Origin: Acidimicrobiia bacterium
GTDB taxonomy: Bacteria > Actinomycetota > Acidimicrobiia > Spongiisociales > ZC4RG35
DNA length: 64,000 nt
Direction: 5' to 3'
Assembly: GCA_965215185.1 (NCBI GenBank)
Contig: OZ244034.1
Span: 2,368,001-2,432,000 of the forward strand
The translations under genes were made by a program, and so were the position numbers. Below the pieces are notes generated by a model. The model was not told the origin of the DNA. It did not search any database and was given only the letters and a program-made list of their open reading frames with translations. This document shows positions 26,517 to 32,412 of this stretch, in pieces; position 1 is the stretch's first letter; each line of letters begins with the position of its first letter.

Positions 26517-27638
26517 ATGAATCGCGACTGGGTAGATAAGGACTTCTATCAGACCCTGGGGGTCAGCAGATCCAACAGCGCCGAGGAGATCAAGCGCGCT
26601 TATCGTAAGCTCGCCCGGCTCCACCACCCCGACGCCAACCCCGGTGACGACAGCAAAGCGGAGAGGTTCAAGGAGATCTCTGAGGCCTACTCGGTTCTCT
26701 CGGATGCCGAGCGGCGCAAGGAATACGACGAGGTCCGCCGCCTGGTCGAGTCGGGAGGGTATCGACACTTCCCAGGTGTAGGTGGCGGCGGTTCTCCGTT
26801 CGGGGGACAGGTCAATCTGGAAGACCTACTGGGGGGCCTGGGAGGCTTCGGGGATCTGTTCGGACGGGCGGGACGGCAGACGAGGACCGCCAAAGGTGCA
26901 GACCTCACCGCTGAGTTGCAAATCGCCTTCGAAGAATCCCTGGAGGGCCTCACCAGATCCATTGCGGTGAAGGGCCAGGCCACCTGTCCCGACTGTCGGG
27001 GTACGGGAGCTCGGGCAGGCACCATACCCGACATCTGTCCGGCCTGCTCGGGACAGGGCACGAGCGTCCAGAACCAGGGAATGTTTTCGTTCAGCCGACC
27101 CTGCCGCCAGTGCCAAGGCTCGGGAAGGATGATCAAAGACCCCTGTCCGGGGTGTCGGGGAAGAGGAGCCCGCCACCGCACCCGCAAGGTACACGTCAAG
27201 ATTCCCGCCGGCGTCAAGGACGGGAGCCGCTTAAGGATCAGAGGGAAGGGCGCGGCGGGCCAATCCGGTGGACCACCGGGTGATCTGATATTGAAGGTGG
27301 AAGTCGAACGCCACCCACTATTCGAGCGGCGCGGCAACCATCTCAATTTGGTGCTGCCCCTTACCTACAGCGAAGCCGCCCTGGGCGCCACCTTGGAGAT
27401 TCCCACCCTCAACGGGGCCGTCAAGCTGCGGGTTCCACCCGGTACCCCCAACGGCAAGACCTTTCGAATCAGAGGGCGAGGAGTGCCCACCCGCAAGGGC
27501 AAAGCCGGTGACCTACTGGTGGAAGCCAGAGTCCAGATCCCCAAACGTGTCACCACACAGCAGCGGAAACTGCTGGAAAACCTCGCCGAGTTGGATGGCA
27601 ACGATATACGCTCCCATTTTGTGTTGAACAATGAGTAG
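26517..27638 (+). CDS. dnaJ: chaperone DnaJ
   Basis: J domain with HPD, G/F region, four CxxCxGxG repeats. Confidence 0.97.
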   Translation: MNRDWVDKDFYQTLGVSRSNSAEEIKRAYRKLARLHHPDANPGDDSKAERFKEISEAYSVLSDAERRKEYDEVRRLVESGGYRHFPGVGGGGSPFGGQVNLEDLLGGLGGFGDLFGRAGRQTRTAKGADLTAELQIAFEESLEGLTRSIAVKGQATCPDCRGTGARAGTIPDICPACSGQGTSVQNQGMFSFSRPCRQCQGSGRMIKDPCPGCRGRGARHRTRKVHVKIPAGVKDGSRLRIRGKGAAGQSGGPPGDLILKVEVERHPLFERRGNHLNLVLPLTYSEAALGATLEIPTLNGAVKLRVPPGTPNGKTFRIRGRGVPTRKGKAGDLLVEARVQIPKRVTTQQRKLLENLAELDGNDIRSHFVLNNE

Positions 27639-28089
27639 CCGACAGGAAGCCGTGTTCGTGATATCGGTGGCGGCCCGGTTATCGGGCATGCATCCTCAGA
27701 CCTTGCGCATCTACGAACGGCGCGGCCTGTTGTCGCCCTACCGCACCGAGGGAGGCACCCGCCGCTACTCCCAGCAGGACATCGACAGGCTGCTACTCAT
27801 CAGTGAACTCACCTCGGCCGGGCTCAATCTGGAGGGGGCGAAGATGGTGATGGAACTACAGGACCAACTTCTAGAGATACAAAGAGAGAGGCGAAGCCGA
27901 CGACGGCACCGGGAAATATTGGCCAGCACCGCCGGGCGGGCAGTCCAACTGGAAGCAGAAAACAAGCGGCTGCGGGCCAAGATCCGCGAACTCGACGACC
28001 GCTTGGGTGCCGTCTCCGGAGAATTGGAGGGCCTGCGCCGCATCTACTACCAGAACCTGTCGAGCCAAGGCGCGCATGAGCATGGCTAA
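27631..28089 (+). CDS. hspR: heat-shock repressor HspR (MerR family)
   Basis: VISVAARLSGMHPQTLRIYER..GGTRRYS; follows dnaJ. Confidence 0.93.
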   Translation: MSSRQEAVFVISVAARLSGMHPQTLRIYERRGLLSPYRTEGGTRRYSQQDIDRLLLISELTSAGLNLEGAKMVMELQDQLLEIQRERRSRRRHREILASTAGRAVQLEAENKRLRAKIRELDDRLGAVSGELEGLRRIYYQNLSSQGAHEHG

Positions 28090-28101
28090 TCTGATAAACC
28101 C

Positions 28102-28383
28102 GTGAGCGACTCCTACCAAGGCATCCTGAGAGTGATGGACCCTAACGGGTTCCTGCTGGACATTGGGTCGGCCGGACTGCAGATCATCAATTCGGCGCGA
28201 AGGACTTGGGGCGGCGAACTCACCGTTTCAAGAGGTTCGTGTCTGGACAGAAAGAGCTTGACCACTTTGGTGGAGACGACCGACGGAACCCGATCACTGG
28301 CTCAGATAGGCCCGACAGACAGATCCGATCCGGGCCGCTTCGTCAAGATGGACGTGGTTGGTCTGGGAGAGGCGCCCTTTTAA
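28102..28383 (+). CDS. small hypothetical protein (possibly DUF4873-like)
   Basis: 93-aa beta-rich ORF with TWGG and terminal G.GEAPF. Confidence 0.55.
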   Translation: MSDSYQGILRVMDPNGFLLDIGSAGLQIINSARRTWGGELTVSRGSCLDRKSLTTLVETTDGTRSLAQIGPTDRSDPGRFVKMDVVGLGEAPF

Positions 28384-28510
28384 CCCCGCACCCAAACTGG
28401 GCACCGCCCGCCCACCAACAGCCGGACCGTCGATCAACGCTCGTTCCTAGCGGCCCGGCATCCAGGCCGGGGCTTGATCGGCGTAGTCGTTGTCGATGCT
28501 CCTATGGTTG

Positions 28511-29772
28511 TCAAATCGAGTTTTGGTGGGGTGTGAGGGCGGTGAGCCATTGGTGGTATTGGGTGGCGAGTTGATGGTTGTGGTAGATGCCTCGCTCGAG
28601 TTGTGAGAGGCGTACTGGGTAGGTTTGTAGGGCTGTGGCGGCGTGGGTGAGGGTTGTTAGCGCGTTTTTGCGTAGACAGCGAAGATGGGCGCCGTTGGGA
28701 GTTTCGGGTGGATTGGTGAGCAGGTGGTAGATCTGGCGGGCGATGTGGCGTTTCAGGCAGCGGATGATCTCCCGGCGGTTTTTGCCTTCTGTTTGTCTTT
28801 TTTGGGCGTAGGCGATGGTGGTCTGGTCGTAGCGCATGCGGGTGATGGCGATCCGCCACAGGGCATTGTTGGCTTGGCGGTTGCCGCCCCGGTTGAGACG
28901 GTGGCGTATGGTCCGTCCCGACGACGCCTGGACGGGACTGGCGCCGCACAATGCTGCGAAGGACGCTTCCGATTGCATGCGTTCGGGGTTGTCACCAGCG
29001 GTGACCAACAGGGCAGCGGCGGTGTCGGCGCCGACTCCGGAGGCGGCTAACAGCGCCGGTGTCGGCGCCGACTCCGGAGGCGGCTAACAGCGCCTGGGCG
29101 CAGAGATGGTTGATCTGGGTGGTGAGCTCTTCGATCTCGGCGGTGAGCGCCTGATATCGGCGGGCCAGGGAACGCAGCGCCTTTTTGGCGTAGGTGACGG
29201 TGATGGTGGCTGTTCGGGGACGGAAACCGGCGCAGGCCTTGACGCGGGCTTTGGCCGGCAGTCCCCCCAGTTGGTGTTTGACCTGGTCGGGGGCGGTTAC
29301 CACCAAAGCGTGCAGCTGGTTTATGGCCTGGGTGCGGGCTTTGGTCGCCGAACGGCGGGCCACCGAAAGCATCCGTATTGCTTCCACCCGACCGTTGCCG
29401 CTTTTGGGCACCGCAGTGGCCTGTCCGTTGAGAACCGCCCGTGCCGCTCCTTGGGCGTCGGTGGCGTCGGTCTTGCCCAACCGGCGGCGCAACTGCCGGT
29501 TGGGACGGTTCACCTCTGTCACCTCGACACCGGCCTCGGTTAGATAACGGGCCAGGCCGGCGCCGTAACTGCCCGTGCCCTCTATACCGACCCGGACCAC
29601 TCGACCGTGTGACCCCAACCAGTCGCCCAGTTGCTGATAACCGGCCTGCATCGGCCACGAAGGAGGCTGTTCCCAAGACCCGACCGGTGCTGTCCACCAC
29701 CACCGCCATATGAACATCCCGGTGGGTGTCCACCCCACCAAACACAATCCGATCATCCTTTGACATATGCAT
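28511..29772 (-). pseudogene. IS110 DEDD recombinase/transposase, frameshifted twice, with C-terminal HTH-like extension
   Basis: GGVDTH / GIEGTGSYG / GKTDATDA / SSG catalytic motifs lie in different frames; breaks near 29650 and at a 37-bp duplication. Confidence 0.88.
29020..29093. repeat. 37-bp perfect tandem duplication inside the IS110 transposase
   Basis: CGGTGTCGGCGCCGACTCCGGAGGCGGCTAACAGCGC at 29020-29056 and 29057-29093. Confidence 0.93.
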
Positions 29773-29809
29773 CTTCTCCTCTCAAAGGTAGAATTCGTTT
29801 CTGTTCTCC

Positions 29810-29992
29810 ACTGACCCGAAAAAGCGGTGGACAGACCACTCAGAATGAGGGAGAAGCAAAGCTCCTATCAGGTCACAGCCGCTCTGTCGGGAGAGCACCG
29901 CCCCCAGACCGAAGGCGGGCCGACAGATCGACTCAAAGGCACAATCGGCCAGGTAGCTGTCGGGTCAGACCCGCCCCGGCCTGGGGGCACCT
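29810..29992 (-). ncRNA. putative IS110 bridge RNA (ends approximate)
   Basis: Non-coding left end carries GACAGCTA (matches target left), GTCG (complement of target right), ATAGGAGC (matches donor left) and TGAGTG (complement of donor right), in the order LTG-RTG-LDG-RDG. Confidence 0.8.
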
Positions 29993-32412
29993 ATAAGTAT
30001 GAGTGGTTAGCTGTCTCAGGTTGCTGCCATCCGCATACATGACAAAGATCTCATCATCACCGTTAAGATCACTGGTGAAGGCAATTGCATAGCCATCCGG
30101 GGACCACACAGGACCACGGTCATCAGCGTCGTTGTCGGTGAGTCGCTGCTTGTTGGACCCGTCCGCGTCCATCACATAGATCTCATCATCACCGTCACGG
30201 TTACTGGTAAAGGCCACGCGGGTCCGATCCGGTGACCACACCATCCCATCTGCCGGGCTGTAGTTGTTGTCGGCCAAGGCTTGCGGCTCGCCCCCCTCCA
30301 CATTCACTGCGAATAGCCCGAAGTTACGACCGCGGGCATTGGCTACATACAACTGCCCACCATCCAGAAACCAGACAAATCCTTCCACCGAAGTGGTGTC
30401 GTCGGTGAGCTGCCGAACATATCGGCCTTGGTCTCCCACCACAAATACCTCCAGGTCGAAGCCGGAACCCCGACTGGTGAAAGCAATTGTGGCACTGTCG
30501 GGCGCCCAAGTTGGATCCCACACCTGATAGTCACTGTCGGTCATTTGGTACAGGTTGCCGCCAACCGGATCCACCACAAAGATCTCACTGTCCCGGCCCC
30601 GGCTGCCCAGAAAAGCTATCCACATGCCGTTGGGAGACCACACCGGCCCAGTGTCATTGTCGTTGTTGTAGGTGAGTTGCTGCTGATTGGCGCCGTCATC
30701 ATCCATCAGGAGAATCTCGCTTCGGTAGGAGCGGGTGAAGGCGATGGTCTTGCCGTCAGGCGACCAGGCCTGTTCGCTTTCAGCAATGTGGTTGCTGGTG
30801 AGTTGTCGACGCGTCCCACCTTCGGCCTCTACCACGAAGATCTCGGTGTCACTGCCCAAAACGCCCTGATAGGCCACATACTTGCCGTCGGGGGACCATT
30901 CGGGATGGCTGTCCTGGATAGAGTCATCGGTGATTTGCTGTAGGTTGCCACCATCAGAATCCACTACAAAGATGTCTCCATGCAGGGAGAAGGTAATCCG
31001 CTTGCTGTCAGGCGACCACGCCGGATAGGCACCGTGTACAAGGAGGCGCGGGTTTCCGCCGTCCGAATCCATCAGAAAAATATTTGAATGGCTATAGAAG
31101 GCGATGGTTGTGCCGTCAGGCGACCACGCCAACGCCCAATCGCTGTAATCGTTGTCGGTGAGTTGTCGATCGTTAGTACCGTCCGAATCTATCAAGTAGA
31201 TCTCGGCGTTGGGATCTCCCTGAGGGTGACTGTGGTAGGCGATTCGCTTACCATCCGGTGACCAAATCAGGTCATCGATGGAAGCCCTTGGGACAGTTGG
31301 CGCAGATCCCCGCCATCGGCATTAACCACGAAGAGATCCCCCGAAGAGACAAAAGCGACTTGGGTGCCGTCAGGCGACCACGCCGGAAGCCGACCACTGG
31401 CAAGATATTGCTTGCCTTCCCCATCCGCATCAATAGCGAAGATCTCACCCCGGCTGTGGAATACAATTCGAGAACCGTCAGGCGACCACGCCGGGTCGTC
31501 TCCGTGAGTCAGGATTCGGTGATTGCTGCCGTCAGCATCCATTACCACTGCGTCATCATCCTGTCCGCGGGTGTCGTACCTGGTGAAAGCGATCCGCATC
31601 TTGGCTTGTTCAGCAACCGCGTAATCCGCAACCGGCAGGGCAACCAGACCCAGAGAACGGGCCAGGAATGTGGCCATCTCCCCTCGGGTCACCGGAACCT
31701 CGGGACAGAATCTCGCCGGGTCAGTGGCACACCCTCGCGTAACATTGGCGGCCGCCAAAGAGTCGATGCTCCCCGCGTGAGTGTTGCCCACGGTGTCAAC
31801 AAACCGGCGGAAGCAGCGGGGCGCAGACCCATGGCGCGGACGAGGAATGTTGCCATCTGCCCACGACTCACGAAAGCATCGGGACAGAACTTCTCCGGAT
31901 CGGCGCTGCGACCTTTGGTTAGACCCAACTCGGCCAGCCTTTCCACATACGGTGCCCACCACTGTCCGGCGTCCACATCCGCGAATCGCGAGGAAATCAC
32001 CGGGGCGGGCGGCGTTTGTTCCAACGCCCTCACCATCCACACCGCCATCACCCACCGCTGTAGTGCCTCTTCAGGACAGAACGCATCCTCCCCGCACTCG
32101 GTGCCCACGAATATCCCCCTACCGGCCAGCGCGTCGATCGCCGGAGCGTGAACACTGCCATTGTCATCCCCGAAGGCCCCGGATCCTTGCGCTCCCACGG
32201 GTCCCAACAGTCCCAGGACCAATCCCGCCACGCCCAGAAACACCAATGAGCCACGCAACCGAAACTTCTCCCTATCAGCAACCATCACAGACAACCTCCT
32301 CTTGGTCGGGCCGCCCGGGGCCGAGCGCCCAACCCACGTCCTGAGAAAACGCCCCCGCACGGGCTTGCCAGCACGCCACCCCACTTCAAGGTCCATCAGC
32401 CGGGCAGCCCGG

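Follow-up and report, generated by a model that had tools for sequence, protein, structure and literature searches.

The element and its insertion site

In a 64-kb stretch of contig OZ244034.1 from an Acidimicrobiia bacterium (assembly GCA_965215185.1, positions 2,368,001 to 2,432,000; hereafter the window), a WD40/TolB-like gene is interrupted by an insertion sequence of the IS110 group, whose left end very probably encodes a bridge RNA with guides to target as well as donor DNA. All coordinates given here are those of the window. The sense strand of the element is the minus strand of the window, on which every feature of the element described below is read. The whole element is 1510 bp long (28495..30004), begins with ACTCATAC and ends with ATAGGAGCATC. 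Its left end, upstream of the transposase gene, consists of 232 nt of non-coding sequence (30004-29773). The transposase gene survives as a pseudogene in three frames (28511..29772), and the right end extends about 19 nt past the stop codon. An earlier note on this DNA, made from its letters alone, had proposed that all four guides of such an RNA can be read in the left end against the element's own target and donor.

The reading frame of the WD40/TolB-like gene is broken after ...CAG CTA ACC and picks up again at GAC AAC GAC TAC (minus strand). When the left and right flanks are joined, the gene's recurring motif QLT|DNDY is back in frame. In addition, position 28494 is joined straight to 30005 in contigs of three public runs from three studies (X5, X6 and X7), with exactly 1510 bases skipped and one letter at the joint that is ambiguous, fitting either side. 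The X7 contig with this joint has a length of 4920 nt, and the shorter side of the joint comprises 255 letters. The joint with its one shared letter therefore proves the limits of the element, the target GACAGCTAAC-C-GACAA and the single shared C, so that the target and donor reconstructed in the earlier note, as well as its single shared base, turn out to be right. The empty site is present in related populations, and the insertion is scarless, without target duplication and with a recoverable empty site. On the flanks of the present copy, the left target, made up of GACAGCTA-AC and the shared C at 30005, occupies 30005..30015, as seen from the flank sequence and the empty-site joint, and the right target GACAA occupies 28490..28494, three of its five bases being complementary to the right target guide.

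Other empty sites were found for related copies of the element, namely one for copies E and F at C1:2519238 in the same genome and a paralogous one for copy C. In run X1, both insertion junctions of the present copy are present. The insertion is thus polymorphic, being found in run X1 and missing from the X5, X6 and X7 contigs, whose flanks diverge by a few percent. One DNA dataset listed as containing the stretch is labelled as a sponge metagenome.

Four guides in the left end

Four strings in the left end correspond to the target and the donor, and the earlier note had located each of them correctly, together with the scaffold words that surround them. The 8-mer GACAGCTA occurs at 29961-29954 and again in the flank at 30015-30008, and ATAGGAGC occurs at 29868-29861 and again at the right end at 28505-28498. 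GTCG stands at 29932-29929 and TGAGTG(G) at 29842-29836. The scaffold words occur twice each, TGACC at 29967-29963 and 29875-29871, and TCTGTC at 29927-29922 and 29835-29830. By chance, the two 8-mers would be expected 0.70 and 0.96 times per 64-kb window on both strands, or about 0.001 times per 8-mer in a given 200-nt stretch on one strand. So rare by expectation, and yet recurring within 200 nt in the right order and orientation, they are far from a chance finding. GTCG alone means nothing, because it occurs 11 times within 28400-30100 (1.7 kb).

The left target guide (LTG) is the 10-mer GACAGCTACC (29952..29961), which has the same sense as the left target, matches it at nine of ten positions and ends in a C that is invariant in the family. 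The right target guide (RTG) consists of GAGTC and a G that pairs with the core C (29929..29934). It is followed by the handshake guide AT of the target loop (29927..29928), the complement of donor bases -2 and -3 (..ATC), which covaries in relatives. On the donor side, the left donor guide (LDG) ATAGGAGC (29861..29868) equals bases -11 to -4 of the right end and matches the left donor located there, ATAGGAGC-AT-C (28495..28505). The right donor guide (RDG) consists of TGAGT and a G that pairs with the core C (29837..29842). It is the complement of the right donor ACTCA(T), formed by the first bases of the element (29996..30004), and it covaries with the element start in distant relatives. The handshake guide GT of the donor loop (29835..29836) is complementary to the target at bases -2 (C) and -3 (A).

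In the earlier note, both left guides were described as 8-mers offset by 2 nt from the shared C. This description holds on the donor side, where ATAGGAGC ends at -4 and bases -3 and -2 are read by the other loop. On the target side it does not hold: the 8-mer and its offset are replaced there by the contiguous 10-mer at 29961-29952, which lies in the rarer of the two registers described below and carries one mismatch at its ninth position (C versus A).

The left donor of the present copy opens with ATA, and TAT stands at element bases 10-12, where the sister copies have TGT, GAT or GGT. According to the legend of Extended Data Fig. 10 in Durrant et al. (PMC11208160), a short subterminal inverted repeat ATA...TAT flanks the IS110 donor.

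Predicted RNA structure and its conservation

The structure was predicted from an alignment of 22 left ends, seven of them from the same genome and 15 from other assemblies, mostly of Acidimicrobiia, from which L026:917, L054 and L044 were left out as near-copies of L021, L025 and L030 (labels in L denote loci of the comparison). Without constraints, the consensus fold is a long stem around an internal loop with a 3-bp apical hairpin, in which both target guides are unpaired. When the donor loop was also held open, the structure comprised 39 pairs, with 94.6% of the cells paired and 11 pairs changed on both sides, compared with 36-53% paired in slid controls, where the partner was moved by 1 to 3 columns. 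Helix 1 is the basal stem of the target-binding stem-loop, with its 5' strand at 29964..29988 and its 3' strand at 29900..29924 (24 pairs, 95.2% paired, five changed on both sides). Helix 2 is the 3-bp apical hairpin of the target loop, GGC...GCC (29938..29950; 100% paired, one pair changed on both sides). Helix 4 is the basal stem of the donor-binding stem-loop, with its 5' strand at 29872..29884 and its 3' strand at 29823..29832 (10 pairs, 95% paired, three changed on both sides). A U-GAC/GUC scaffold closes both loops, which explains the TGACC and TCTGTC repeats. Folded as a single sequence, the present left end beats all 200 shuffles (z = -3.9).

When the consensus was folded without constraints, GGAG, which is part of the left donor guide, was paired with a downstream CUCC. 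This pairing is lost in distant relatives, and therefore the left donor guide was not treated as a stem.

A covariance model built from the 22-row alignment gave matches in 16 of the 150 other sampled genomes of the class, and 31 matches in the 33 fetched loci. The highest score, 206 bits, belongs to the present copy, which is itself among the sequences from which the model was built.

Guides compared with the flanks of relatives

The guides were compared with the flanks of 53 elements, of which 47 are unique with a usable left limit. Five elements (L023, L080, L087:2722, L076 and L055) were dropped because they have no usable left boundary, the flank being shorter than 12 nt or the element start more than one mismatch away from the RDG. 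Element F was dropped as a duplicate of E, and the right end of copy C, occupied by copy D, was set to none. The boundaries of L047, L056, L072, L073, L074 and L075 are doubtful, and these elements are still counted.

The first loop has, in every relative, a 5' side that consists of CC or UC, ten variable bases and usually a U, the tenth variable base being always C, and a 3' side of about five variable bases followed by G-A-U. The LTG agrees with the element's own flank at eight or more of the ten positions in 28 of the 47 elements (mean 7.5), whereas only 1.25% of the 2156 mismatched pairings reach this level (mean 3.7). Similarly, the complement of the RTG agrees with the element's own right flank at all five positions in 16 of 33 cases and at four or more in 23 of 33, compared with 17 of 1054 mismatched pairings (1.6%) at four or more.

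Since both ends are invariant in close relatives, no covariation is visible there on the donor side. In distant relatives, the RDG and the element start vary together (TCTCT/AGAGA, TCACA/TGTGA, TCGCA/TGCGA, TCCCT/AGGGA and TTGAT/ATCAA), and variants of the LDG recur at the elements' own right ends (ATAGGGGC in L040 and L067, ATAGGTGC in L061 and ATAGAAGC in L048). The exception is found in L069 and L071, whose left donor guide and end differ by one base.

The guides therefore lie in internal loops of a structure that carries compensatory changes, and they covary with the flanks of homologues. The two outcomes that the earlier note had named beforehand as contradicting its reading, guide segments base-paired in stems and guides that do not covary with insertion sites, were thus both not found.

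Core, handshake bases and guide registers

The left flanks of the close family without exception have C as their last base, which was not imposed in the comparison, and all right ends likewise close with C. Before this C the donor has a T, while any of the four bases occurs in the targets. The base at +1 varies in the targets and differs between donor and target in most elements. Only the C is thus common to both partners, in accord with the single ambiguous letter at the empty-site joint. A core dinucleotide shared in all four pairings, of the kind seen in IS621/IS622, was not found in this family, and the LDG also stops short of the junction.

Other placements of the core were considered and rejected. 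A core at (-1,+1) is contradicted by the +1 base, since in most elements donor and target do not agree there. For a core of two bases at (-2,-1), combined with heteroduplex segregation, the objection is that right ends keep the donor's bases and every well-matched left junction keeps the target's base. Indeed, among the 18 right ends listed in the same genome, the 17 complete ones keep the donor's own bases at (-2,-1), the 18th being cut by a nested copy, and the in-register external right ends likewise keep donor bases (mostly ATC, with TTC in L069 and L071 and AAC in L070). Finally, the difference between the two registers described below might be read as a 1-nt bulge, or as an extra left-end C that would make an 'ATC'/'CC' core; the reading frame of the present copy and the empty sites show instead that the extra base belongs to the target, and the right junctions all end in a single C.

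Of 35 well-matched elements, 30 have, directly after the core-pairing G of the donor loop, a base that is Watson-Crick complementary to base -2 of their own target, and three more form a G:U pair at this position; the next base is the Watson-Crick complement of target base -3 in 29 of the 35. The handshake bases of the target loop follow the donor end in the same way, with AU for ATC, AA for TTC (L069 and L071), UU for AAC (L070) and AC for GTC (L074, judged by eye). In the present copy both handshake pairs fit, GU against A-C of the target and AU against A-T of the donor. The earlier note had remarked on one base after each right guide that was reminiscent of handshake pairing; this observation is borne out, and the comparison extends it to two covarying bases.

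The LTG occurs in two registers. In the common register, the 10-mer reaches and includes the crossover C (27 of 47 elements). In the rarer one, it ends one base before that, and an additional C is present in the target (8 of 47, comprising the present copy, C, E/F, L049, L053, L029, L030 and L070). The loop sizes are equal in both registers, 13 + 13 nt. The registers were checked against the E/F empty site at C1:2519238, which has both Cs, the paralogous empty site of copy C and the empty-site joint of the present copy; the site of copy B, with just one C, gives back the open frame of another transposase gene. Both registers are real. The handshake base of E, L053, L029 and L030 agrees with the rarer register and not with the common one, and the spacing therefore looks selected or evolved rather than accidental.

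We propose, only tentatively, that this family, found mainly in Acidimicrobiia, uses a geometry not described for IS621/IS622, with a one-nt core, handshake guides that directly abut the core-pairing G, an LDG that ends 3 nt before the crossover, and two LTG registers. A phrase search of the literature for a bridge RNA with a one-base core found nothing; the supplementary tables of the founding study may list other lengths, so the geometry is not claimed to be unpublished.

Sister copies and their transposases

At least 11 related copies with an identity of 70-92% are present in the same genome, and the donor ends are identical across all sisters. Among these own-genome copies, an open transposase frame of 404-409 aa is found only in copies C, D and F, which match PF01548 (DEDD transposase domain) and PF02371 (catalytic Ser domain) with E values of 1e-19 to 1e-26. 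The best solved relative of these intact sister transposases is the IS621 transposase (E 9.5e-12 over a partial alignment), followed by the ISCro4/IS622 structure 9t56 (E 2.5e-10). The catalytic residues D, E, D, D and S are aligned and conserved between the sister transposases and IS621.

Combined, the exact limits and the empty site, the complementarity of all four guides, the conserved structure, the covariation of guides and handshake bases with flanks, and the protein family leave little doubt that this is an IS110-group insertion sequence whose left end encodes a bridge RNA with two guide loops. The observation made in the earlier note is therefore confirmed, and its interpretation is partly supported, the geometry of the left target guide being the part that had to be revised. 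The defining features of an IS110-group bridge-RNA element that can be read clearly from the sequence are all present, except for the shared core dinucleotide, in place of which there is a single C.

The sister copies also insert into one another, at C1:1095994-1098932 (L004, L006) as well as at C1:1612692, 1621752, 370984, 909140 and 2341230. Copy D lies inside the right end of copy C, and the D guides TTGACAAAC / ATAG read as the right end of the family itself, covering the -35 box and the start of the left donor. Behind several other right ends stands a further, partial one. Transposase genes, at conserved codons, are themselves the target of some copies (L034; C1:371322 and 1621891; copy B at C1:978480-979954). 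One such codon site is 'CLK|R.IAR' in sister genes, and another is 'GDRQLN|QAIH' in a distinct IS110-type gene, for which an uninterrupted paralogue exists at C1:2344867. A different element at C1:281182, with a left end starting with ACTCATGGTGGG, lies in the ACTGAAATC|C site type that is used by copies E and F. In the window itself, two putative open reading frames at 26517-28089 on the plus strand, just upstream of the interrupted gene, look DnaJ-like and MerR/HspR-like by their translations.

Putative junction promoter, state of the present copy and alternative explanations

Joining of the right and left ends would create a putative promoter. In such a junction, the -35 half TTGACA (28509..28514) would be separated by a 17-bp spacer from the -10-like CATACT (30001-29996), which overlaps the right donor, and the two hexamers pair up only across the joined ends. 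Allowing at most one mismatch, 27 of 34 right-end/left-end pairs contain a -35 hexamer, and in 19 of these 27 a -10-like hexamer follows at a distance of 16-18 bp. A scan for promoters and terminators in the integrated copy over 29700-30200 found nothing. As the terminator scan was empty, the T-run after the donor stem is not called a terminator.

Several observations weigh against a functional bridge RNA. The transposase gene of the present copy is split across three frames. In its single-sequence minimum-energy fold, six of eight LTG bases are weakly paired with the RTG side; the centroid fold keeps only three of these pairs (GCU with AGU), and the family consensus keeps none. No Rfam family was matched within 28300-30200 at E values up to 10, none coming near the gathering score, and the best Rfam matches are chance-level ones of miRNA type that arise on the 37-bp tandem duplication of the transposase gene. 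Among the public runs listed as containing the stretch, none is on record as RNA, and two metatranscriptome runs of one study contain next to none of the sampled words and are uninformative on expression. The guide comparison has its own weak points. The LTG matches the own left flank at fewer than seven of ten positions in 12 of the 47 elements, the guides of L022 and L054 match neither of their own flanks, and the present copy itself has one LTG mismatch and only three of five RTG bases matched. Furthermore, the permutation figures overstate independence, because the elements are kin.

The alternative that best survives is that the bridge RNA gene of the present copy is a dead relic, no longer transcribed or used, whose matches record a past insertion. 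We regard this as a serious possibility, although not as the favoured one. In line with it, the transposase gene carries a tandem duplication at 29014-29094 (37-bp unit, 2.2 copies, 97% matches) and a further frame change near 29647; its IS110 motifs are still present but scattered over three frames. The closest sisters, copies B, H and I, are likewise broken or truncated, the integrated state has no promoter-like site, and one LTG and two RTG positions are mismatched. On the other hand, the RNA module is intact and has the top score of the family model, though as part of its building set. Three runs contain related populations that lack the insertion, which is therefore not ancient. Moreover, copies C, D and F, with their open transposase frames and identical donor ends, could act on the present copy. 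As its own transposase is broken, the present copy would be mobile only through the enzyme of a sister copy, and present activity of its bridge RNA is hypothetical.

A second alternative is that the present copy was placed by the bridge RNA or enzyme of a sister, as a non-autonomous passenger, and that its own guides match through similarity among sisters. L022 (left end from 952) lies in the site type of copies E and F, whose guides match that site, and the failure of the guides of L022 and L054 (left end from 946) to match their flanks suggests that a co-resident sister RNA guided them in trans or that left ends were exchanged. The donor ends common to all sisters and the imperfect fit of the present copy to its own site would also agree with a passenger. 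However, nine of ten LTG positions and both handshake bases fit the present site, and no other copy in the same genome has a better-matching LTG, which makes this explanation improbable for the present copy. Least probable is that the flank repeats in the left end are DNA features, either protein-binding subterminal repeats or a captured copy of the target: the left guides do have the same sense as the DNA they resemble, but right guides that are reverse complements and left guides that are direct copies form exactly the pattern described for IS621 in the available text, the loops that contain the guides belong to a structure maintained through compensatory changes, covariation links the handshake bases to the other DNA partner in a way that DNA repeats do not predict, and the protein is homologous to a solved RNA-guided recombinase.

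Proposed mechanism and comparison with known systems

For the bridge RNA, which remains the preferred explanation of the left end, we infer RNA production, protein binding, cleavage chemistry and the order of events as follows. The junction promoter (TTGACA, 17 bp, CATACT) would drive expression of both the RNA and the transposase gene. The RNA would fold into two stem-loops, each with a GAC/GUC scaffold closing an internal loop. The target loop would present GACAGCUACC on its 5' side and GAGUC-G on its 3' side. In the donor loop, AUAGGAGC would read the right end of the element, and UGAGU-G would read the C and the element's first bases. The DEDD/Ser recombinase would then, by analogy with IS621, cut the top strands just 3' of the shared C and exchange them, after which AU of the target loop and GU of the donor loop may pair with the incoming strand of the other DNA as the handshake. 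If only the top strand is transferred, the junctions would keep the bases of the left partner, and the bottom-strand guide could tolerate two spacings.

In IS621, as described in the available parts of the two reports on it (PMC11208160; PMC11208158), the core is a CT dinucleotide that is common to target and donor and takes part in all four pairings, and once the top strands have been exchanged, positions 6-7 of the other DNA are paired with the two bases that lie 3' of each right guide. The present element resembles IS621 in several ways: its long left end, upstream of the DEDD/Ser transposase, carries the bridge RNA, this RNA has two stem-loops, each with an internal loop, and two handshake bases after each right guide read the other DNA. 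A putative promoter across the joined ends, scarless insertion without duplication and the conserved catalytic residues are further shared features. In contrast to the CT core of IS621, however, only one C is shared here, preceded by T in the donor and by a variable base in the targets, and the handshake bases directly abut the single core-pairing G. In addition, the left donor guide ends 3 nt ahead of the junction, and the LTG comprises 10 nt in two registers instead of the 7 + 2 of IS621. The similarity of the proteins is low (the partial alignment with E 9.5e-12), and the present family is known from its sequence alone.

ISCro4/IS622 has the same architecture and handshake logic, according to the accessible text of its description (bioRxiv 10.1101/2025.05.14.653916; structure 9t56), but differs by its CT core, its 14-nt recognition site and its origin from Enterobacteria. 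The ISEc21 seekRNA, which is of the IS110 type, and the seekRNAs of the IS1111 type are likewise comparable. In the portions available of Siddiquee et al. 2024 (PMC11187229), these are RNAs of a non-coding region, upstream as in the present element, with short matches to both target strands, without target duplication and with a circular form that creates a promoter. In the IS1111 type the RNA is located downstream and the guide order is reversed; the present element, with its left end of 232 nt and only about 19 nt after the stop codon, is of the IS110 type. As to the core, the descriptions available in these publications (PMC11208160; PMC11208158; bioRxiv 10.1101/2025.05.14.653916) mention a dinucleotide only.

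Transfer of mainly the top strand by IS110 enzymes has been reported, in the text available, for CazIS110-1 (bioRxiv 10.1101/2025.10.25.684509) and for the 'half-match' recombination of IS621 (bioRxiv 10.64898/2026.08.31.748434). Such transfer would explain why the bases of the left partner are kept up to the C and why some copies are found at sites that their own guides do not match, the experiments having been made with other elements.

Implications

What sets the present bridge system apart is that target and donor share one base and that the handshake bases stand directly beside it. Bridge RNA systems have been known since 2024, and the founding study is said to have analysed thousands of elements and predicted thousands of bridge RNAs. 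Therefore, one more bridge RNA is in itself ordinary. The locus adds a natural data set, namely one genome with more than 10 diverged copies, nested insertions and empty sites.

If the proposed geometry is true, bottom-strand pairing is not metrically coupled to the cut. This would then be in keeping with a transfer restricted to the top strand, and what the core demands of programmable sites would be eased to a single C. Confirmation at the bench would widen the sites that bridge editors can address, since a C would be needed instead of CT, and would bear on whether the bottom-strand guide fixes the position of the cut.

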